Shown: positions 4,384 to 32,210 of the stretch, one piece after another
How positions within the stretch are numbered: position 1 is the first letter of the stretch
How the letters are laid out: every line of letters starts with the position of its first letter
From: a virus
Length of the DNA: 32,210 nt
Direction: 5' to 3' (one strand)
UHGV virus genome: UHGV-0152653
The notes under the pieces: model-generated
Told to the model about the DNA's origin: nothing
The model's database searches: none
The model's input: the letters and a program-made list of their open reading frames with translations, nothing else
Made by a program: the position numbers and the translations under genes

Positions 4384-5237
4384 GCACCATCCTGAAATGG
4401 GCGGGAAATAAAACCGCCATAATGTCCGAACTGAAAAAGCATCTTCCTGCTGGCCCGCGACTGGTTGAACCTTTCGCGGGTTCCTGTGCAGTGATGATGG
4501 AGACGGATTACCCCAGCTATCTTGTTGCGGATATTAATCCTGATTTAATCAACCTCTATAAAAAGGTTGCTGCTGATTGTGAGGCGTTTATATCTCGTGC
4601 CAGAGCTTTATTTGAGGAAGCAAACAGGGAGGTGGCTTATTACAACATAAGGCAGGAGTTTAATTACTCCACTGAAATTACTGATTTCATGAAAGCGGTA
4701 TATTTTCTGTATCTCAATCGTCATGGTTACCGTGGGTTATGTCGCTATAACAAGAGCGGGTATTTCAACATTCCCTACGGTAATTATAAAAATCCGTATT
4801 TCCCTGAAAAAGAAATTCGCGCATTTGCAGAGAAAGCCCAGCGGGCAACGTTTATCTGCGCCAGCTTTGATGAAACGCTGGCGATGTTGAAGGCGGGGGA
4901 TGTGGTGTATTGCGATCCGCCGTATGACGGTACGTTTTCCGGCTATCACACTGATGGTTTCACTGAAGATGACCAGTATCACCTGGCATCCGTTCTTGAA
5001 CATCGGTCATCAGAAGGACATCCGGTCATTGTTTCTAACAGTGACACATCCCTGATCCGTTCGCTGTATCGCAATTTTACTCACCACTACATCAAGGCAA
5101 AACGCAGCATCGGTGTGGCAGCTGGTGATAGTAAATCTGCAACAGAAATCATTGCTGTTTCCGGGGCGCGCTGCTGGGTGGGATTTGATCCTTCGCGTGG
5201 CGTAGATAGTTCTGCTGTGTACGAGGTGCGTGTATGA
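4380..5237 (+). CDS. dam: DNA N6-adenine methyltransferase (Dam-like)
   Basis: Motif [10 protein letters not shown] and motif IV DPPY ([10 protein letters not shown]); GGAGGTG RBS before ATG 4380; stop overlaps the gpA start (ATGA). Confidence 0.8.
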
Positions 5238-7618
5238 GTCATGACGATATGAGCAACTCTAGCGGCTTTAACGAGGCCGCTGCATCATTTTCATGGAACG
5301 GCCCGAAAAAGGCCATTAACCCTTATCTGGACCCGGCGGAATTTGCGCCGGAGTCTGCACTTTCAAACCTGATCACTCTGTATGCTGCCGATAACGAGCA
5401 GGAACAACTGCGCCGCGAGGCACTGAGTGAGCAGGTCTGGGAGCGTTATTTCTTTAATGAATCCCGTGATCCTGTCCAGCGCGAAATGGAGCAGGATAAG
5501 CTCATTAGCCGGGCAAAGCTGGCGCATGAGCAGCAGCGTTTTAATCCAGACATGGTCATTCTGGCTGACGTCAACGCCCAGCCTTCCCATATCAGCAAGC
5601 CGCTGATGCAACGTATTGAATACTTCAGCAGTCTGGGCAGGCCAAAGGCTTATTCCCGCTATTTGCGTGAGACGATTAAGCCATGTCTGGAAAGACTGGA
5701 GCATGTACGCGACAGTCAGCTATCCACTTCTTTTCGCTTTATGGCAAGCCATGAAGGGCTGGACGGCCTGCTGATCCTGCCTGAAATGAGTCAGGATCAG
5801 GTAAAACGCCTGTCCACCCTGGTAGCAGCGCATATGAGCATGTGTCTTGAGGTCGCTTGTGGTGATTTGTATGCCACCGATGACGTTAAGCCAGAAGAAA
5901 TCCGCAAGACATGGGAAAAGGTGGCGGCGGAAACCCTGCGACTGGATGTCATACCGCCTGCGTTTGAGCAACTCCGCAGGAAAAGAAACCGCCGTAAACC
6001 CGTGCCCTATGAACTTATTCCGGGTTCGCTGGCGCGTATGTTGTGCGCCGACTGGTGGTATCGGAAATTATGGAAGATGCGTAGCGAATGGCGGGAAGAG
6101 CAGTTGCGTGCTGTTTGCCTGGTCAGCAAAAAAGCATCTCCCTATGTCAGCTATGAAGCCGTGATGCATAAACGTGAGCAGCGCCGTAAGTCGCTGGAGT
6201 TTTTCCGTTCTCATGAACTGGTGAACGAAGACGGCGACACGCTGGATATGGAAGACGTGGTAAACGCCAGCAGCAGCAACCCTGCGCATCGCCGCAATGA
6301 GATGATGGCCTGTGTTAAAGGTCTGGAGCTTATCGCGGAAATGCGCGGTGACTGCGCCGTTTTCTACACCATCACCTGTCCGTCACGTTTCCATTCCACG
6401 CTAAATAACGGCAGGCCAAACCCGACCTGGACCAACGCGACAGTAAGACAAAGCAGCGATTATCTGGTCGGCATGTTTGCTGCATTTCGTAAGGCTATGC
6501 ACAAAGCCGGGTTGCGCTGGTATGGCGTGCGGGTGGCTGAGCCGCATCATGACGGCACAGTTCACTGGCACCTGTTGTGTTTCATGCGCAAAAAAGACCG
6601 CCGCGCCATTACTGCATTGTTGCGTAAGTTTGCCATCCGTGAAGACCGCGAGGAGCTGGGCAATAACACGGGGCCACGCTTTAAGTCTGAGCTGATAAAC
6701 CCGCGCAAAGGAACGCCGACAAGCTACATTGCGAAATATATCAGTAAGAATATTGACGGGCGTGGTCTGGCTGGCGAGATCAGTAAGGAAACGGGTAAAT
6801 CCCTGCGTGATAACGCTGAATACGTTAATGCCTGGGCGTCTCTGCATCGTGTTCAGCAATTCCGCTTCTTTGGCATTCCGGGGCGTCAGGCTTACCGTGA
6901 ACTGCGATTGCTGGCTGGTCAGGCGGCAAGGCAACAGGGGGACAAAAAAGCAGGTGCGCCGGTACTGGATAACCCGCGCCTTGATGCAATCCTGGCTGCT
7001 GCTGATGCTGGTTGTTTTGCCACTTACATCATGAAGCAGGGCGGCGTACTGGTTCCCCGCAAATATCACCTCATCAGAACTGCTTATGAAATTAACGAAG
7101 AGCCGACCGCCTATGGCGATCACGGCATTCGTATTTATGGCATCTGGTCACCCATTGCAGAGGGCAAGATCTGCACTCATGCAGTGAAGTGGAAAATGGT
7201 TCGTAAAGCCGTTGACGTTCAGGAGGCGGTAGCCGACCAGGGCGCTTGCGCCCCTTGGACTCGTGGCAATAACTGTCCCCCTGTTGAAAATTTGAACCAA
7301 TCAGGGGGCGATTTACCAGAAGCCAGTGGGCCGGAGTCGCTGCCGGATCTTCATAATCTGAGCGCGAAGGAACGACGGGAGCTGACGGCGCGGCTGAGAT
7401 TGGTAAAACCTAAGCGGCGGAAAGGGTACAAACAGCAGATTAGCAATCATCAGCGCCAGCAGCTTGATGCTGAACTGAGGTCTAGGGGGTTCGATGCGAG
7501 TGATACCGAGGTGGATCTGCTTTTGCGTGGTGGCAGTATCCCGTCCGGGGCCGGGCTGCGTTTGTTCTATCGAAACCAGCGCCTGCAGGAAGATGATAAA
7601 TGGCGGCAGTGGTACTAA
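5234..7618 (+). CDS. A: Replication initiation endonuclease gpA (rolling-circle, HUH)
   Basis: 794 aa; HUH motif in [10 protein letters not shown] and paired-Tyr motif YIAKYISK; position as in P2/186. Confidence 0.85.
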
Positions 7619-7689: not shown

Positions 7690-8148
7690 CTATTTAGTTT
7701 TTTCAATCATAGTGCTTTCGGCTTTTGAATATACACTATTAATAGTGGTGATTTTTGTAGTTAATGCTATACAAACTAGACTCAGAAGTAAGACACCAAT
7801 TGATATTGTATTGTTGCTGAGTATTATATGTAGACAAATAGAATAAATTGCAACGATGACTATTGCTACGAAAACAAAGATTGCCATTAAATTATGTGCT
7901 TTGATGTAGTCCTCAGGGGTTAATATGTAGCTTATGTTTATGATTATAAATAAAATTAAAAATGCTCCCCCAATCCATTTGGGTAGGGCTGTTTCTTTTT
8001 TTGATACTGCAGGTGTGGTTCTTGGGATCGATTCTACGAAGGATTTAAGATTTCCCATGTCAGTATTGTTTAATGCTGCACTTTCTGCTTCGAATTTTGA
8101 AACAGTGCCATCAGGAAGGGTTGTAGTCCAGCTTATTTTTCCTGTCAT
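7690..8148 (-). CDS. Small membrane protein (152 aa, three predicted TM helices); candidate effector of a two-gene cargo system
   Basis: N-terminal ~55 aa hydrophilic, then three hydrophobic segments (WIGGAFLILFIIINISYIL, LMAIFVFVAIVIVAIYSICLHIIL, ISIGVLLLSLVCIALTT); ATG overlaps the stop of the upstream gene (ATGA); AT-rich by eye. Confidence 0.55.
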   Translation of the reverse strand: MTGKISWTTTLPDGTVSKFEAESAALNNTDMGNLKSFVESIPRTTPAVSKKETALPKWIGGAFLILFIIINISYILTPEDYIKAHNLMAIFVFVAIVIVAIYSICLHIILSNNTISIGVLLLSLVCIALTTKITTINSVYSKAESTMIEKTK

Positions 8149-8519
8149 ACAACATCCCTTATTCTGAATATTCTATTAAAATCAATATCAACAGCAGAGT
8201 TCGACCACTCACTCTTTTGATTATCTTTAATTAGAATTGCTTTGTTCTCGTCAAAGATTATATTTGTACCACTAAACTCAATATGAGATAGGTCTCCTCT
8301 AAATATTTTTTGCTCAACGCTTTTGAATGCATCTTTTAATGATGCACACTCTTTTCTGAATAATGGTTTGGGGCTGTAAGTCCCTAAGTTTATAACTATT
8401 ACGCCACTACCATCTTTAGCAGGGTGAATGGAGAAAGATAGCGCTAATCCGTGATAGTGGGATTGTATTTTCTTCATTAATTTACGAACGTAATCATCAT
8501 ACCGCTTTCTATATATCAT
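8145..8519 (-). CDS. Hypothetical soluble protein (124 aa); upstream partner of the membrane protein
   Basis: ORF with 4-bp overlap onto the downstream gene; no recognisable motif; AT-rich; weak RBS, so the start is uncertain. Confidence 0.5.
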   Translation of the reverse strand: MIYRKRYDDYVRKLMKKIQSHYHGLALSFSIHPAKDGSGVIVINLGTYSPKPLFRKECASLKDAFKSVEQKIFRGDLSHIEFSGTNIIFDENKAILIKDNQKSEWSNSAVDIDFNRIFRIRDVV

Positions 8520-8683
8520 TTTTTTCTTAATGGTTAGTTGTTTTTCGTATATTACAATACTAATAAATATATTGTCGATTCAAATAAAACGTTGTAGCCA
8601 AGCGGAAGAATTTTAGTTTACGGATGGTTGTTTTTTGATCTCCATAGCCGAAGGCAATCTGAACTATAGTGATCATAAAAGTG

Positions 8684-8727
8684 TTTACATTCATGGAACT
8701 ACGCATATACTGTATATGTGTACAGTG
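8684..8727 (+). promoter_or_regulatory. SOS-regulated promoter with LexA operator
   Basis: -35 TTTACA (8684-8689), 16-nt spacer, -10 TATACT (8706-8711); LexA box TACTGTATATGTGTACAGTG (8708-8727), CTGT-N8-ACAG and 17/20 to consensus, overlapping the -10. Confidence 0.7.
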
Positions 8728-8757
8728 CTTTCTGTGTGTTTGGTGATAGGAGGGAAG

Positions 8758-8946
8758 ATGCAAGACTATTTTTTGGAGTCGTTGAAGCTCCAGCGCATTG
8801 ATTTTTTTGTCAAGCTTGTGGCGGCTAGTGAGTGTGATGATGAAGAGAAGCGACTGGCTATCCAGTGGGTTTCTGAGTTAACGGATGAGCTGATGGCAAA
8901 GATTCGTGCTCATGAATACAACCGCTCAATGGATCTTCCCAGTTAA
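8758..8946 (+). CDS. Hypothetical SOS-controlled protein (62 aa); candidate antirepressor module (positional equivalent of 186 tum)
   Basis: First ATG downstream of the LexA-box promoter with AGGAGGG RBS; acidic small protein; function assigned by position only. Confidence 0.45.
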   Translation: MQDYFLESLKLQRIDFFVKLVAASECDDEEKRLAIQWVSELTDELMAKIRAHEYNRSMDLPS

Positions 8947-9024
8947 CAGCAGGAACGTTGCTGGCGTGAGAACTAGCTTCTTACGTCAGCAAGGTTAAAC
9001 AACGAGTACAACGAGGCGTTAGCC

Positions 9025-9291
9025 ATGGGTAAATCCAACAGCAAATTCCAGACCGTTTATGAGGGGCAGGCGCTTGAACGTGACGAACTTGGCGGATGGG
9101 TTTTGTTTCAGCGTCGTGTAGAGTATGGCGGCAAGTACTGGATGGGAATAACCATGGATGATGTGTTTTTGTTTGGCTCCGATCATCCTGTATCAGGTAG
9201 TGAGGCGATGGTCTTCATCATTGATTATGAGGGCGAGCAGCTCAGACGGTCTTTACCCGTTGGATACACCCCACAAATGCCGCTTTTCTGA
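9025..9291 (+). CDS. Hypothetical SOS-controlled protein (88 aa)
   Basis: Second ORF of the same transcription unit, followed by a terminator at 9359-9384. Confidence 0.45.
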   Translation: MGKSNSKFQTVYEGQALERDELGGWVLFQRRVEYGGKYWMGITMDDVFLFGSDHPVSGSEAMVFIIDYEGEQLRRSLPVGYTPQMPLF

Positions 9292-9358
9292 CAACCGGCT
9301 GGGTGCATGTCTATGCTGCATGAGATCGCATGATCGTTTGAGGATCGTTTTCGCTGAG

Positions 9359-9384
9359 GCCCGCCAGAACTGGCGGGCTTTTGC
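9359..9384 (+). terminator. Rho-independent terminator
   Basis: GCCCGCCAG-aa-CTGGCGGGC perfect 9-bp stem followed by TTTTGC. Confidence 0.55.
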
Positions 9385-9427
9385 TTATGTCATGCAGGTG
9401 CATGAAAATCGCTCCATAAAGCGGGCA

Positions 9428-9446
9428 GGCGTGGCGGGGATACGAG
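9428..9446. other. cos: cos-like element (candidate cohesive-end site)
   Basis: GGCGTGGCGGGGATACGAG resembles the P2/186 19-nt cohesive end as I recall it (GGCGAGGCGGGGAAAGCAC); lies in the region next to the portal-terminase genes where cos is expected; from memory, not verified. Confidence 0.3.
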
Positions 9447-9577
9447 CGCGCGCTGGGAGGTATAAGAATGAAGTACAATTAACTTCACTTTGTTGAGTAA
9501 AATGCTATAAGAATAATGCAAATTATTGAGTCCCATTAGTTCAAAACTTAGGGATATCTTATGTGAAAGGAGGTTAT

Positions 9578-11263
9578 ATGTTAGATAAATTGATTTTTAA
9601 TTCAGGAAGTAATCCAACATCTAAATCTTCATTATCGGTTGACTTGACTCCATTGACAATTTTTGTGGGGCCGAATAATAGTGGTAAATCTAGAGCTTTA
9701 ATCGATATAGAAAATCAACTGACAACCCGAAATGCAGCGCAGGGAGAAGTAATAAAACAGATATTAATCAAACCACTTTCTGAGGATGAAGCAAAAAAGG
9801 AAATTGAATCTTTACAAGTTGAGCCAAACCAGGATGAAAAGCATGCGGGGCATGTTGTTTTATCTAGGCTAAACCTCCGTGGTGAAGGAATATCTAGGAT
9901 TCTAGTGTATTTGGATGGAATGTTAAGAGAATTCCAGCAACCCAATGAATTAAATCGGGAGCATCTATATCAATATTACTCGTTGCTGACTCTAAGGTTG
10001 GATGGTAGAAGTCGACTTTCCTTAACTTCAAGTCAAGGTTCATCCGATTTACAAGGAGAACCTACGAATAACCTTTCATTTCTTTTTAAAAATAATAAAG
10101 CAAGGATGGAGCTAAGAGATATCGTTTTTGATGCTTTCGGGAAGTATCTTGTTATTGATCCAACAAATATAGGTTATCTTAGAATTCGTCTTTCTGAGCG
10201 CGCTCCTGAGACTGAACAAGAAGAAAGAGGTTGGGATGAAAAGTCAGTGCTTTTTCATTCAAAAGCGTCATTGATTACAGAGGCTAGCGATGGTGTTAAT
10301 GCTTTTGTTGGGATGATGATTTCGCTGATAGTTGGCTCACCAAAGGTGACTCTAATTGATGAGCCGGAAGCTTTTTTACATCCATCCTTATGCTCAAAGT
10401 TAGGAAAGGAAATATCTAGGATTAGTGCTCATAGTAATAAAAATGTGTTTATTTCAACGCATAGCGCTAATTTTTTAATGGGTTGTGTTCAAGGTAAAGT
10501 GCCATTGAATATAGTTAGGCTTACTTTTGATGGTAAATCTGGTACGTCTAGATTACTAACAAAGGAACAATTGACGCCGCTCATGAGAAATCCGTTATTA
10601 AGATCTATTGGTGTGCTAAACGCATTGTTTTATAATTACGTTGTCGTTACTGAAGCGGATGCAGATAGGGCATTTTATCAAGAGATTAATGAGCGCTTAT
10701 TGGCTGCTGGAGATCCTCGGGGTATTGAGGGATGCCTGTTTTTGAATGCTCAAAACAAACAAACTGTTTGGGATATAGTAAAACCCCTTCGTGAGCTAGG
10801 TATTCCCTGCGTTGGAGTGGTAGATATCGATATATTGAAGGAGGGAGGAGTTGTATGGAAAAAACCAATGCTTGGAGCTTTTTTTCCAGAAATGAAGCAT
10901 GAAACTTTAGGTTTGGAAAGACAAAAGCTTTTTCAAGCCTTCAAAAATACGAATAAAAATATGAAGACAGATGGGGGCCTCTCCTTGTTATCGGGTTCAG
11001 ATAAAACCGCCTGCTCTGAGTTTTTTAAATCCCTTTCAGATTATGGGGTTTTTGTCGTTCCAACGGGCGAGATCGAGTCTTGGTTGCAAAATCTTGAAAT
11101 AGGTCGAGGAAAGAATACTTGGTTAACAAGTATTTTCGAGAAGATGGGGGATGATCCTAATGATGAATCATATGTGAAGCCATCTGAAGGTGATGTTTGG
11201 GATTTTATTGGGAATATAAAGCACTGGTTGGTTAACCCTGAAAGGAAGGGTATTCCCGAGTGA
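9578..11263 (+). CDS. OLD-family ABC ATPase with C-terminal TOPRIM-like nuclease domain (P2 Old-like, class 1 OLD-type candidate defence protein)
   Basis: Walker A GPNNSGKS near the N-terminus; Walker B VTLIDEPEAF about 220 aa later (long insert typical of SMC/OLD ATPases); H-loop-like STHSANF; C-terminal VVVTEADAD and VGVVDIDIL resemble TOPRIM Glu and DxD motifs; AAAGGAGG RBS before ATG 9578; AT-rich island. Confidence 0.6.
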   Translation: MLDKLIFNSGSNPTSKSSLSVDLTPLTIFVGPNNSGKSRALIDIENQLTTRNAAQGEVIKQILIKPLSEDEAKKEIESLQVEPNQDEKHAGHVVLSRLNLRGEGISRILVYLDGMLREFQQPNELNREHLYQYYSLLTLRLDGRSRLSLTSSQGSSDLQGEPTNNLSFLFKNNKARMELRDIVFDAFGKYLVIDPTNIGYLRIRLSERAPETEQEERGWDEKSVLFHSKASLITEASDGVNAFVGMMISLIVGSPKVTLIDEPEAFLHPSLCSKLGKEISRISAHSNKNVFISTHSANFLMGCVQGKVPLNIVRLTFDGKSGTSRLLTKEQLTPLMRNPLLRSIGVLNALFYNYVVVTEADADRAFYQEINERLLAAGDPRGIEGCLFLNAQNKQTVWDIVKPLRELGIPCVGVVDIDILKEGGVVWKKPMLGAFFPEMKHETLGLERQKLFQAFKNTNKNMKTDGGLSLLSGSDKTACSEFFKSLSDYGVFVVPTGEIESWLQNLEIGRGKNTWLTSIFEKMGDDPNDESYVKPSEGDVWDFIGNIKHWLVNPERKGIPE

Positions 11264-11270
11264 GTTTATT

Positions 11271-11294
11271 GAGCCGCTTTAGCGGCTCTTTTCA
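11271..11294 (+). terminator. Rho-independent terminator after the ATPase gene
   Basis: GAGCCGC-ttta-GCGGCTC stem-loop followed by TTTTCAT. Confidence 0.5.
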
Positions 11295-11299
11295 TATTC

Positions 11300-12331
11300 C
11301 TATGCAAGGTTATATTCATTAAATTGCATTATTGGCTCCTTTATCCATTCATTTACTTCTTGAAGCCTTTTTTGCAATGGAATTAGCTCATTACGGACAA
11401 AGACCCTGCTGGCTTTCTCCACATCCCCAAATCCCCCGACATTATTTGGCATTATCCCCATCATTTGTGGCGGCACACGATGCGCAGCCATCATGTCATC
11501 CCGGCTCACGTTCTTGATATTCAGAAACTCATCCTTCGCCGCGACTTCTGACAACGGGATGATCTGAAGCCCGTCCTTTTTGCCGTTAGGCGAGTACATA
11601 AACAGGTTGCGGAAGTTGCCAGGGCCTTTGGCGCTTTTCATCGCATTGCGGAGGTTGTTCACATCCTCCTGGTTCTGCGCGGCATCGGTCATGTACATGA
11701 TGAAGCCTGCATGACTGCCGTTAATGTAATACTTCCGGCGGAACAGCGTGGCGGACTCGTTGAGCAGGGCCGACGGAATGGCAGAAAGATAACCTGGCAG
11801 GCCGTAGATCTCCTGGTTGATGTCAGGTTCCATCAGATGAAAAATGCTGCCTTTCGTGAACTGATACGGCTGGGTTGTCATACCGTATTGCACAAACCAG
11901 TAGGTATCCAGGTCTAACCCGCGTCGGGTGTATTTTGCCAGCGCAGGCTCAAGGGCTATAACTTCACCGAATCGGTTCGTGCGTTTCTCCAGGTAGGCGT
12001 TACCAAATACCAGATAGTCCTGCACAAAACGCGAAAAAGCCTGTTGGCTGAGCAGCGGATGAGGGATATAGGTACTGGTCAGAATGTTGCACTTTACTGC
12101 AATCGGGGAACTGTGATGCACGGCAGCCCGGAAGGTGCGCGCCAGTCCGTCAAAACTTACGGGTGGCTCATACCAGCGATCCGTCTGTACGCATTCCACA
12201 TAGTCCAGCAGTTCGCGGCGGTCCAGTACAGGAATGGGATCACCAAAGCTGAAAGCTTCGGCTGAAGTTTGATTTTTATGCTGGCTCCGTTTCGTCGCAG
12301 CAGCGCGGTTTTTCTTACTCTTTCCCATCAA
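11300..12331 (-). CDS. Q: Portal protein (P2 gpQ-like)
   Basis: 343 aa, leftward, overlapping the large terminase gene; size and position as P2 Q. Confidence 0.85.
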   Translation of the reverse strand: MMGKSKKNRAAATKRSQHKNQTSAEAFSFGDPIPVLDRRELLDYVECVQTDRWYEPPVSFDGLARTFRAAVHHSSPIAVKCNILTSTYIPHPLLSQQAFSRFVQDYLVFGNAYLEKRTNRFGEVIALEPALAKYTRRGLDLDTYWFVQYGMTTQPYQFTKGSIFHLMEPDINQEIYGLPGYLSAIPSALLNESATLFRRKYYINGSHAGFIMYMTDAAQNQEDVNNLRNAMKSAKGPGNFRNLFMYSPNGKKDGLQIIPLSEVAAKDEFLNIKNVSRDDMMAAHRVPPQMMGIMPNNVGGFGDVEKASRVFVRNELIPLQKRLQEVNEWIKEPIMQFNEYNLA

Positions 12332-14094
12332 AAAATCTCCACAATATTGCTGGTATTGGCGGACTCGCCCTGCAGCGGTTCGTTAAACAGTGCGTGCATT
12401 GTTGCCCAGGCCAGATCGGCGTGGCTGGCTTCTTCGCTGCGGCTAGCTTCATAGGTCGGGCGGTTGCCGCTGGCGGTGGTGGCGCGACGGATTGCCATGA
12501 ATGACTGCGCAATGTCGGTGTGCCCGGCGTCAAACTCCAGACGGCGGTGGCTGATAATGTCGTAGGCCTTGAGTACCAGGGCGTTTTTAACGTTGGGGTT
12601 GTAGACAAACTCCCGGACGGCAGGAAAGAACGCTTTCACGTTCTCATAAACCCCGTGACCGACGCCTGTCGAGTCGATGCCGATATAGGTCACGTTGTAC
12701 TGCTCGGTCAGTTTTTTGATTGCATCAGCCTGGGCGCGGAAGTCCATCCCGCGCCACTGGTGACGCTCAAGAATGCGAAACTTACCGCCTGGCACGGCTG
12801 GCGGTGCCACCACCACGCATCCGGCGCTGTCGCCATTCTGCGTACCTTTTGCCGGGTCATAACCGATCCACACCTCGCGCCAGCCAAACGGGCGCAGGGC
12901 CAGTGCATGAAAGTCGGTCCAGACTTCCCAACTGTCCACCATGCACGCCTGCAGCTCGCTGAGCGGAAACACGGATGCGAGATCGTCCACAAACTCGCAC
13001 ATCAGCAGGTTCTGGTATTCGTCCGGGCTGTACTCCATGCGTAGCTGGTCGAGGTCGAACAGGTTACAGCCGCCGCGCACCGCATCTTCCACGGTGACTA
13101 TCTGGCGGTATTGCCCGTCTGCGCACAGCAGGCCGGGGGCCAGATTGCTGTGGGACAGGTCGATGTCCACCTTATCGGCTTTGTTGCGCCCACGGTTGAA
13201 CAGCGCACCGGACCAGAACGGATAAGCACTGTGTGTCAGACTGGATGGCGTGGAAAAATAGGTTTGTCGCCATTTTTTGTGAATAGCCATACCGGAAGCC
13301 ACTTTGCGCAGCTCCTGGAATTTCGGTATCCAGAAATATTCATCCAGATACAGGTTGCCGTGGTAACTCTGGGCCGTGCGGGCATTGGTGCCGAGGAAGT
13401 AAAGCGTGGCCCCGTTGGGAAGCACCATCGGATCGCCTTTCAGCTCCACTTCCACTTCTTTGGCGAAGTCGATGATGTACTGCTTAAAGACGTGGGCCTG
13501 TGCTTTGCTGGCGGAAAGGAAAATCTGGTTACGTCCGGTCAGCAGGGCGTCAATCAGGGCTTCACGGGCAAAGTAAAAGGTCGCGCCGATCTGGCGTGAC
13601 TTCAGCAGGTTGCGGATGCGGTTGGTTTTTCCGGCTTCCCACCAGTGGCGCTGGTAGTTGAACATGGAGGAATGGAAGATTTCTTCCAGCTTCTCAATCT
13701 GTTCATCGGTGAAAACATTCTTTTCCGGCTGACGGCGCGGGCCTTTGTTGCGGTTGGCGACGTTTGGGTTTAAGTCGGCTTCGTTGCCGCCATTGTTAAA
13801 CTTGCCGATCCGCGCGTGGCGTTCCGACTGGCGCGCCAGCAGGTCAATCTCTTTGAAATCTTTCCCTTCTTTGTGCTCCTTCATAATGAGCTGGCAGTAG
13901 CGTGCGGCGGTGGTGAGCTGCATCTGATCCAGCGGCCCATAGTCACCCCACTTGTCGCGTTTTTTCCAGCTGTGAACGGTTGCAACTTTCTCGCCCAGCA
14001 TTTCAGCAATGCGGGCTACGCGGTATCCCTGAAAGTACAGCAGCATGGCCTGCCGACGGGGATCGAGATCTGCGGGTGTCAGTGTGGTGTTCAT
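12328..14094 (-). CDS. P: Terminase large subunit (P2 gpP-like)
   Basis: 588 aa, leftward, upstream of Q; size and position as P2 P. Confidence 0.85.
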   Translation of the reverse strand: MNTTLTPADLDPRRQAMLLYFQGYRVARIAEMLGEKVATVHSWKKRDKWGDYGPLDQMQLTTAARYCQLIMKEHKEGKDFKEIDLLARQSERHARIGKFNNGGNEADLNPNVANRNKGPRRQPEKNVFTDEQIEKLEEIFHSSMFNYQRHWWEAGKTNRIRNLLKSRQIGATFYFAREALIDALLTGRNQIFLSASKAQAHVFKQYIIDFAKEVEVELKGDPMVLPNGATLYFLGTNARTAQSYHGNLYLDEYFWIPKFQELRKVASGMAIHKKWRQTYFSTPSSLTHSAYPFWSGALFNRGRNKADKVDIDLSHSNLAPGLLCADGQYRQIVTVEDAVRGGCNLFDLDQLRMEYSPDEYQNLLMCEFVDDLASVFPLSELQACMVDSWEVWTDFHALALRPFGWREVWIGYDPAKGTQNGDSAGCVVVAPPAVPGGKFRILERHQWRGMDFRAQADAIKKLTEQYNVTYIGIDSTGVGHGVYENVKAFFPAVREFVYNPNVKNALVLKAYDIISHRRLEFDAGHTDIAQSFMAIRRATTASGNRPTYEASRSEEASHADLAWATMHALFNEPLQGESANTSNIVEIF

Positions 14095-23942: not shown

Positions 23943-24386
23943 ATGGATAACTACTATTTTTCACCTTCGACTTTGGCATTTTATCCTGAAGATCTCATGT
24001 TGTTATATGAAGCAGCAGGAACTTTACCTGATGATATTATTTCTGTGCCACATGAAATATTTGCTACTTATTCAGGAGAGACACCACGAGGGAAAAAGCG
24101 TGGTACTACAGAAGATGGGCAGCCCACCTGGATTAATCTACCGCCTTTAAGTCATGAGGAAGAAGTTGAGGTTGCGGACGCCCAAAGACAGTTTCGTATT
24201 GATGAGGCGAACGACTACATGAACAGTAAGCAATGGCCCGGTAAAGCAGCTATTGGTCGTCTGAACGGTGACGAACTGGCGCAATATAATTTGTGGCTGG
24301 ATTACCTGGACGCACTGGAACAGGTCAATACTTCCAGTGCGCCAGATATTGAATGGCCTACGCCTCCGGTAACTCAGGCCAGCTAA
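23943..24386 (+). CDS. G: Tail fibre assembly chaperone (P2 gpG/Tfa-like)
   Basis: 147 aa directly after H; Tfa-like C-terminus ending ...SAPDIEWPTPP. Confidence 0.8.
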   Translation: MDNYYFSPSTLAFYPEDLMLLYEAAGTLPDDIISVPHEIFATYSGETPRGKKRGTTEDGQPTWINLPPLSHEEEVEVADAQRQFRIDEANDYMNSKQWPGKAAIGRLNGDELAQYNLWLDYLDALEQVNTSSAPDIEWPTPPVTQAS

Positions 24387-24756
24387 TCTCAGGAGCCGTC
24401 GAAGTGTCGACGGCTTTTACTTCTTTTTTGTAGTTCATCCAGGCGGATAGTTTTTCTTTATCTGTACTGCTGATATCACCAAGCATTAATTCCACTCGCC
24501 AGTCAGCTGTGACATTATCGGCATGAGCAAGTAACTGCATTCGCTGATTTTCCGCACGTGCGACATAATCAATCACCGGGGATTTCAGTACCGGTAAACC
24601 ATTTTCATCTGACGTAATTAATTTACACCCTTCCTGCTGTCCGGCAATTAATTCATTGTATAAGTCTGTACTTACTCGAGTCCGGAGAATCAAGACAGCG
24701 TATTGCACTGATTTTTGATGTGGGTGTTTCCACAATTTATAGAAAATTTCCTGCAA
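24358..24756 (-). CDS. Orphan inverted tail fibre assembly gene (tfa-like), convergent with and overlapping the 3' end of G
   Basis: 132-aa minus-strand ORF with Tfa-like N-terminus and a C-terminus (...TAPEISWPELPEA) paralogous to that of G; 29-bp 3' overlap with G. Confidence 0.6.
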   Translation of the reverse strand: MQEIFYKLWKHPHQKSVQYAVLILRTRVSTDLYNELIAGQQEGCKLITSDENGLPVLKSPVIDYVARAENQRMQLLAHADNVTADWRVELMLGDISSTDKEKLSAWMNYKKEVKAVDTSTAPEISWPELPEA

Positions 24757-32133: not shown

Positions 32134-32159
32134 TAAATTTCAGGCAACAAAAAACCCAT
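32134..32159. repeat. attR: attR core (right copy of 26-bp direct repeat)
   Basis: Exact 26-bp match to 52-77. Confidence 0.8.
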
Positions 32160-32191
32160 CAACCTTGAACCGAAATGGCGGGGTTGATGGG
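32134..32191 (-). terminator. Probable host rho-independent terminator (minus-strand sense) overlapping the att core
   Basis: Inverted repeat CCCATCAACC (32155-32164) and GGTTGATGGG (32182-32191); read on the minus strand the hairpin is followed by TTTTTTGTTGCC, which lies in the att core. Confidence 0.4.
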
Positions 32192-32210
32192 CTCCACAAA
32201 ATGGGGACAT

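Follow-up and report, generated by a model that had tools for sequence, protein, structure and literature searches.

What kind of protein is encoded by the AT-rich gene that lies between the cohesive-end site (cos) and the portal gene of the viral genome UHGV-0152653, and how unusual is its place there? The genome, analysed here in full as a window of 32,210 nucleotides (nt), is a P2-like prophage of Escherichia coli, and its positions 9000-11400 are 100% identical in 15 complete E. coli chromosomes. An initial annotation, made from the sequence alone, had proposed that the gene at 9578-11263 encodes either a single-gene class 1 OLD-like protein or a fused PARIS-like defence protein, inserted at a point distinct from that of old in phage P2. 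Our analysis favours the first option: in all likelihood the product is a standalone OLD-family enzyme of the Class 1 type, its gene being AT-rich, horizontally acquired cargo of the prophage between cos and the portal gene, with a proposed defence mechanism. The coding sequence and the protein features on which this reading draws are as follows.

9578..11263, plus strand: coding sequence of 561 amino acids (aa), read as a standalone OLD-family ABC ATPase-TOPRIM nuclease (WP_001682736.1)
9668..9691, plus strand: Walker A motif GPNNSGKS, residues 31-38, with K37 invariant in the family alignment
9728..10282, plus strand: insert within the ABC ATPase, residues ~51-235, placed by AlphaFold2 (AF2) secondary structure at the position of the OLD 'dimerization region'
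10286..10363, plus strand: signature-like SDG (residues 237-239) to Walker B VTLIDE (257-262), then the OLD-type EAFLHP, from the family alignment
10460..10462, plus strand: H-loop histidine H295 in STHS, invariant in the family alignment
10625..10831, plus strand: TOPRIM core, residues 350-418, the span of Pfam OLD-like_TOPRIM, with E359 and D363 as the E-x-x-x-D of TEADAD and D416-I-D418 as the DxD motif
11069..11077, plus strand: G-E498-I-E500, third acidic cluster of the TOPRIM region, which pairs with P2 Old D541 and E543

Every motif quoted in the initial annotation was found where it had been reported, and the key residues are invariant in a family alignment of 31 homologues of 52-88% identity. 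The invariant positions include K37 of Walker A, D261 and E262 of Walker B (in LIDEPE), H295, the three acidic residues of VVVTEADAD (E359, D361 and D363), D416 and D418 of VGVVDIDIL, and E500; E498 is kept in at least 90% of the family sequences, and the signature-like motif reads S237-D238-G239. Conservation peaks in the TOPRIM core, with a mean column identity of 0.90 and 40 of 70 columns invariant, and residues 51-140 of the insert are the least conserved, with a mean column identity of 0.49 and not one invariant column. The insert as a whole (about 185 residues) is folded in the AF2 model.

Profile searches detected both halves of the expected architecture. Pfam returned AAA_15 (3.9e-13) and AAA_21 (1.7e-12), which together cover residues 229-299, and OLD-like_TOPRIM (8.3e-5) over residues 350-418; the top PADLOC model was 'Old' (1.3e-20, residues 254-515). 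Alignment to P2 Old gave a consistent picture. BLASTP found 24% identity between residues 254-544 and Old residues 292-583 (E 3e-12), and hhalign comparison of the 31-member family profile with a profile of 30 P2 Old relatives reached a probability of 96.2% (E 2.1e-9) over 262 columns, aligning residues 255-553 with 293-586 from Walker B through the C-terminus. The same alignment pairs E359, D363, D416, D418, E498 and E500 with P2 Old E398, E402, D453, D455, D541 and E543, of which E398, E402, D453, D455 and D541 belong to the P2 OLD catalytic pocket in a 2026 cryo-electron microscopy study (bioRxiv 10.64898/2026.07.10.737580). A local pairwise alignment had instead placed E359 opposite Old E402; this assignment was dropped, since both the profile-profile alignment and the predicted strand boundary give E398. 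Comparison of the predicted structure likewise supports the OLD assignment, with OLD structures outscoring PARIS models over the TOPRIM and C-terminal regions. Together with the lack of a conserved partner gene, described below, these results bear out the proposal of an OLD-family ABC ATPase with a TOPRIM domain.

The resemblance to P2 Old (NP_046798) extends to overall design. Both are single polypeptides (586 aa in P2, 561 here) in which an ABC ATPase is followed by a TOPRIM domain and a helical C-terminal region, the two are collinear from Walker B to the C-terminus with the acidic TOPRIM residues kept, and both are standalone AT-rich cargo of P2-type phages, beside cos and inside the gpA-gpQ hotspot. 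The two differ in several respects. The 24% identity is found only over the C-terminal half, and hhalign could not align the ATPase insert, the tetramerisation lock of P2 OLD; the TOPRIM motif is E-A-D-A-D rather than E-G-K-T-E, with D361 in place of K400; the gene lies on the opposite side of cos and on the opposite strand (9578-11263, plus strand, to the right, against 31620-33380, minus strand, to the left in P2); and it has no tin-like partner. Because the low similarity is limited to the C-terminal half and the insert remains unaligned, WP_001682736.1 is not an orthologue of P2 Old, and a search for the P2 Old family returned a separate set of proteins with 37-100% identity.

Other OLD-type systems were compared as well. 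Sequence likeness to TsOLD of Thermus scotoductus (6P74, Class 1) is limited to the Walker A region (E 9.5e-4 in a family-profile search of the PDB). Vc OLD of Vibrio cholerae (Class 1), compared by description, is a DNA nickase independent of RecBCD whose activity requires Walker A, Walker B and the DxD motif. The chromosomal Class 1 protein YbjD (OldB) of E. coli shares the architecture by annotation and is also a standalone gene, but neither BLASTP (E 0.089) nor hhalign (probability 2%) finds significant similarity in sequence, which rules it out as a close relative. GajA of Gabija (Class 2) is distinguished by its GajB/UvrD-like helicase, which has no counterpart beside the gene studied here, and the Class 3 effector of Retron-Eco8 by its length of about 740 aa, by an NCBIfam retron_eff_Eco8 score of 31 bits against a cut-off of 250, and by its reverse transcriptase and msr-msd noncoding RNA (ncRNA), neither of which is found in the window.

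OLD classes are defined by gene context (review PMC10568477), and we examined the contexts of eight homologues: Methylolobus, two other non-enterobacterial genomes, Serratia, Pantoea, Hafnia, Cronobacter and E. coli strain 1105. In Methylolobus and the two other non-enterobacterial genomes the neighbouring genes are unrelated to one another and to those of the window, and all-against-all BLASTP of the neighbours from four contexts and the window found nothing below E 0.01, and hence no conserved partner. The homologues of Serratia and Pantoea occupy the same slot of a complete P2-like prophage, and those of Hafnia and Cronobacter lie in an apparently decayed one. In E. coli strain 1105 (L013, NZ_CP023388) the identical gene is accompanied by a different set of genes to the left of cos, namely a DinI-like gene and two hypotheticals. 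The window contains no helicase, reverse transcriptase or retron RNA; no RVT domain occurs in the open reading frames (ORFs) neighbouring the cargo gene, Rfam finds just RybB in the window, and no GajB/UvrD-like helicase adjoins the gene in the window or in any of the homologue contexts. The differing and mutually unrelated neighbours of the eight contexts, the missing helicase, reverse transcriptase and retron RNA, and the varied cargo left of cos lead us to class the protein as a standalone, Class 1-type OLD, which agrees with the single-gene option of the initial annotation and supports its reading as defence cargo; membership of a Gabija or retron system was ruled out by the lack of helicase, reverse transcriptase and ncRNA.

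Base composition sets the gene apart wherever it was checked. In four homologue loci its GC content lies about 6-13 points under that of the flanks (0.52 against 0.65 in L004, 0.36 against 0.43 in L005, 0.46 against 0.54 in L007 and 0.50 against 0.56 in L008), and the corresponding values in the window are 0.38 and about 0.55. Within the prophage, GC content is 0.35-0.40 over 9501-11000, compared with 0.53-0.59 in the portal and terminase genes and 0.51-0.55 in gpA, in agreement with the earlier observation that the gene is AT-rich unlike the phage core. The low GC content in every context is consistent with repeated horizontal transfer.

Several results weigh against this interpretation and should be set beside it. 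Taken alone, WP_001682736.1 scores 23.5 bits for OLD-like_TOPRIM and so barely passes the cut-off of 23.2, it falls far short of the cut-off of every NCBIfam model, and PDB sequence searches with phmmer and with the family profile returned just generic ABC transporter motifs. The Toprim domain of YbjD, also of Class 1, is reported to be dispensable for its phenotypes. The insert that controls tetramerisation and activation in P2 OLD is not detectably similar here, so the regulatory logic may differ. A promoter scan of the plus strand of 9466-9577 found no site reaching the consensus threshold. Finally, in the survey of Rousset et al. (PMC9122126) the protein appears as system 95 of Table S5B ('AAA_15/AAA_21/SMC_N', 34 occurrences), without comment and outside the tested systems, and a literature search found the accession WP_001682736 in no main text. 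OLD-like_TOPRIM is, however, matched by all 31 aligned homologues (best 1e-6), so the borderline score is no fluke, and homology to solved OLD structures was shown through the predicted structure in place of PDB sequence searches.

Among the alternatives, the one that survives best, though improbable, is that the gene has no role in defence. It could be a selfish module, of the addiction or toxin kind, through which the prophage is stably kept, or its nuclease could work for the phage itself, for instance in competition with P4 satellites or in host takeover. Pfam labels AAA_21 a 'putative AbiEii toxin', the gene directly adjoins cos, the sole element common to P2 and P4, and it persists in Hafnia and Cronobacter remnants that retain little other phage sequence. 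Persistence of that kind is equally expected of a useful defence gene, however, and no conserved antitoxin-like partner was found; homologues also occur outside prophages, and all characterised standalone relatives (P2 Old, Vc OLD and YbjD) give anti-phage phenotypes. The remnants themselves are those of Hafnia alvei (L005/L006, 4895-7300) and Cronobacter dublinensis (L009, 3843-5686), where homologues 64% and 88% identical lie beside a ybjL-like Asp-Al_Ex gene with a cos-like site persisting upstream. In Hafnia, L006 also retains a 101-aa portal fragment and an Ogr/Delta gene, and these remnants look like decayed P2-like prophages that kept the OLD-like gene. A RybB small RNA gene at 32146-32210 on the minus strand (Rfam RF00110, 77 bits), truncated by the end of the window, places the prophage studied here next to the rybB/ybjL region, where those remnants lie too.

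The second option of the initial annotation, a fused PARIS system in which AriA and AriB would form one chain (Class 4) that responds to anti-restriction proteins of phages, Ocr among them, by freeing a TOPRIM effector that cuts tRNA, appears very improbable. PARIS does share the logic of an ABC ATPase coupled to a TOPRIM nuclease, and it too is found in P2/P4 hotspots. Yet DUF4435 (PF14491), the defining domain of AriB, is absent from the protein at E values up to 1 and from the 31 family members at E values up to 0.01. The PADLOC models for AriA and AriAB match only residues ~176-305 in the C-lobe of the ATPase, to which the HEC-01A and PtuA matches are also confined, and the Old model, like the OLD structures, scores higher over the TOPRIM and C-terminal regions. 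Rousset et al. annotate system 164 as PARIS-like, not system 95 (PMC9122126).

A multi-gene system akin to Gabija or a retron-OLD, with a partner across cos, is scarcely credible in the light of the contexts described above. In its favour, four uncharacterised small ORFs lie directly left of cos in the same AT-rich island, and the 15 E. coli genomes with the whole of 9000-11400 keep it without a single difference. Against it, four genomes, including strain 1105, have the gene at 99% identity or more but a different set of genes left of cos, and Table S5A of Rousset et al. lists WP_001682736 seven times, with both left-of-cos arrangements (PMC9122126); in other taxa the homologues have unrelated neighbours, and neither a helicase, a reverse transcriptase nor a retron RNA accompanies the gene. 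The ORFs themselves occupy 7690-9291, which stands out as a second AT-rich island (GC content 0.36-0.39) in the classical tin/old position. Its minus strand holds two overlapping ORFs, of 152 aa with a hydrophobic C-terminal half and of 124 aa (phrog_18061, unknown function), and its plus strand two small ORFs of 62 aa and 88 aa (phrog_2100, unknown function). Neither Pfam nor PADLOC matched any of the four, which could be uncharacterised hotspot cargo.

Least credible of all is a vestigial TOPRIM domain in a protein working through its ATPase only, for which the YbjD precedent and the borderline single-sequence Pfam score speak, since YbjD is not significantly similar to WP_001682736.1 and the family conserves no region better than the TOPRIM core, whose acidic ligands are all invariant or nearly so.

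With the standalone OLD-family enzyme as the preferred reading, the second part of the question concerns its position, for which the following features of the locus are needed.

5234..7618, plus strand: replication endonuclease gene (gpA homologue), left edge of the published gpA-gpQ hotspot
9303..9465, no strand assigned: conserved cos block (packaging region), common to P2-like phages and prophages, left boundary of the cargo slot
9428..9446, no strand assigned: predicted cos, homologous to the cohesive end of P2 (19 nt; here GGCGTGGCGGGGATACGAG, in P2 GGCGAGGCGGGGAAAGCAC), by alignment to the P2 cosR/cosL junction
9466..9577, plus strand: AT-rich leader, with the ribosome-binding site AAAGGAGG at 9566-9573; homology to other prophages stops near 9465
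11271..11298, plus strand: intrinsic-terminator-like hairpin and T-run, 7 nt past the stop codon, between the cargo gene and the convergent portal gene
11300..12331, minus strand: portal gene (gpQ homologue), right boundary of the cargo slot, convergent with the cargo gene
12328..14094, minus strand: terminase gene, flanking gene beyond the portal gene

The cos site called in the initial annotation at 9428-9446 was confirmed as a homologue of P2 cos, since the P2 cohesive end aligns with that stretch. With 5 of its 19 positions differing from P2, the site had escaped a search for P2 cos that allowed up to 3 mismatches; alignment with the joined ends of P2 brought it out, 9396-9455 being 80% identical to them over 60 nt (E 4e-11 for a small search). 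The surrounding block (9303-9465, query 304-466) is the sole part of 9000-11400 that was matched in 58 phage records and in about 1260 further E. coli genomes. In the P2 reference, old (31620-33380) lies left of cos, with cosR at 33575-33593, and the portal stop codon follows only 168 bp to the right of cos; in the window the distance from cos to the portal gene is 1854 bp and is occupied by the OLD-like gene, which therefore sits on the portal side of cos, as had been proposed. A cos-like site is found 106-184 bp upstream of the start codon of the homologue in E. coli, Hafnia, Cronobacter, Serratia and Pantoea, and its retention in five genera indicates that this gene lineage travels in the slot between cos and the portal gene.

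Whether that slot amounts to a distinct insertion point depends on the frame of reference. The gpA-gpQ interval is an established defence hotspot of P2 (Rousset et al. 2022, PMC9122126; also PMC13586616), and the gene has the properties of hotspot cargo, being a variable non-core gene between gpA and gpQ, next to cos. We surveyed the slot in 60 records, drawn at regular intervals from the ranked list of the 1295 in E. coli that match 9303-11900. Between the cos block and the portal gene, 25 of the 60 carry 0.45-1.6 kb of unrelated DNA with an annotated gene, examples being a PIN protein, a P-loop NTPase, DUF4145, a TIR protein, SieB and TIGR02391, and only 4 show the short spacing of P2. In a further 26 the portal piece alone was the best match, the cos block lying at a distance above about 1.8 kb or in another part of the record; of these, E. 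coli strain 2018-166 (L012, NZ_CP075632) was inspected and has three genes between cos and the portal gene. The proposal of a distinct insertion point thus holds relative to the P2 reference phage and fails in general, since most of the sampled E. coli P2-like prophages carry other cargo in the slot and the slot itself lies within the gpA-gpQ hotspot; the survey and the inspection of strain 2018-166 rule out a new insertion point. Neither the kind of gene nor its site is out of the ordinary for E. coli P2-like prophages. The gene itself is found in only 19 of the roughly 1290 E. coli genomes that carry the cos/portal block, 15 sharing the whole of 9000-11400 at 100% and 4 combining the gene (at least 99% identity) with different genes left of cos.

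The three-gene cargo that strain 2018-166 carries right of cos differs from that of the window, and it is coupled to the same DinI-like left set that strain 1105 combines with the OLD-like gene. The cargo left of cos and that right of cos assort independently, and the cos block (9303-9465) has the look of a recombination joint between two sub-slots of the hotspot.

Some details of the gene boundaries can be refined. The program-made ORF spans 9563..11263 and opens at a GTG codon, but the true start is almost certainly the ATG at 9578, to judge from the sequence: AAAGGAGG precedes it, in line with the strong ribosome-binding site noted earlier, and all homologues open with the same Met-Leu. A weak promoter candidate, TTGTTG-16 nt-AATAAT at 9490-9517, was spotted by eye in the leader. 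The terminator noted earlier corresponds to a terminator-like hairpin of GAGCCGC-TTTA-GCGGCTC at 11271-11288 followed by TTTTCATATT. On the far side, megablast similarity between the portal gene and its counterparts in other P2-like prophages of E. coli begins only at about 11322-11413, which suggests that the last 7-37 portal codons are part of the variable segment or diverge with it.

The gene type, the prophage hotspot and the exact protein are already present in public annotation and in a published supplementary table, and no new category is defined here. The PGAP name for WP_001682736.1 is 'ATP-dependent nuclease' or 'ATP-dependent endonuclease', and PHROGs assigns it just to a family of unknown function (phrog_4747, 1.8e-20). 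A word-index search returned 3531 database homologues, so the ORF is not a chance feature; the best 120 have at least 53% identity over the full length, and full-length relatives at this level are spread across Proteobacteria. The family is large and tightly conserved: in an exhaustive profile search, at least 1619 proteins that each represent a cluster at 50% identity scored E 1e-30 or better. The phage-isolate collection contained no close homologue and returned only P2 Old (24%) and a mycobacterial prophage ATPase (25.8%). The latter, gene 90 of Mycobacterium phage prophiT36-1 (OQ417966.1, 70509-71666; 'AAA family ATPase'), matches residues 162-511 at E 3e-26, a better match than P2 Old within that collection, so that relatives are carried by actinobacterial prophages too.

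Elsewhere in the window, two convergent ORFs resembling tail-fibre-assembly genes, of 147 aa (plus strand) and 132 aa (minus strand), occupy 23943-24756, in a dip of GC content (0.45-0.46) past the tail fibre gene. They share 24% identity and are alike at their C-terminal ends (BLASTP E 4e-8), and the segment could be what is left of a tail-fibre cassette of alternative or invertible type.

By analogy with characterised relatives, we infer expression in the lysogen, a defence phenotype, a trigger and a substrate for the OLD-like protein, and put forward the following mechanism. The protein would be made in the lysogen and held as an auto-inhibited oligomer, much as P2 OLD is reported to be an auto-inhibited tetramer that turns tRNase on destabilisation. 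On infection by a competing phage, the ATPase and its insert may sense a phage-made signal, a protein or an aberrant DNA structure, and an ATP-dependent rearrangement would then open the TOPRIM site. The opened site would cut nucleic acid by two-metal catalysis and the incoming phage would be blocked, probably through abortive infection. The substrate could be either tRNA, which P2 OLD and AriB are reported to cut, or DNA, on which Vc OLD, TsOLD and GajA act; TsOLD and Class 2 enzymes cut DNA (review PMC10568477). No part of the family evolves faster than the insert, which bears no relation to its counterpart in P2 Old, and for this reason a trigger differing from that of P2 Old would be expected.

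A more ambitious proposal, which we regard as doubtful, is that this family of about 560 aa forms a separate and widespread clade of standalone OLDs in which residues 51-140 of the insert read a trigger unlike that of P2 Old or Vc OLD, and in which the fixed cos-proximal place is functional, not merely permissive. That place lies 106-184 bp inside the left cohesive end in five enterobacterial genera, with the gene always reading away from cos; if functional, it could, for instance, let the gene be expressed early, while the DNA enters in linear form, or let it move together with cos when P2-like phages recombine.

Class 1 is the least studied class of a very widespread OLD defence architecture. 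Phenotype data exist only for P2 Old, Vc OLD and YbjD, and the substrates reported for these disagree (DNA exonuclease, nickase or tRNase). With a nuclease half related to that of P2 Old and a sensor insert that is unrelated, the protein described here is a natural and convenient counterpart for studying what determines the trigger and the substrate of a standalone OLD.

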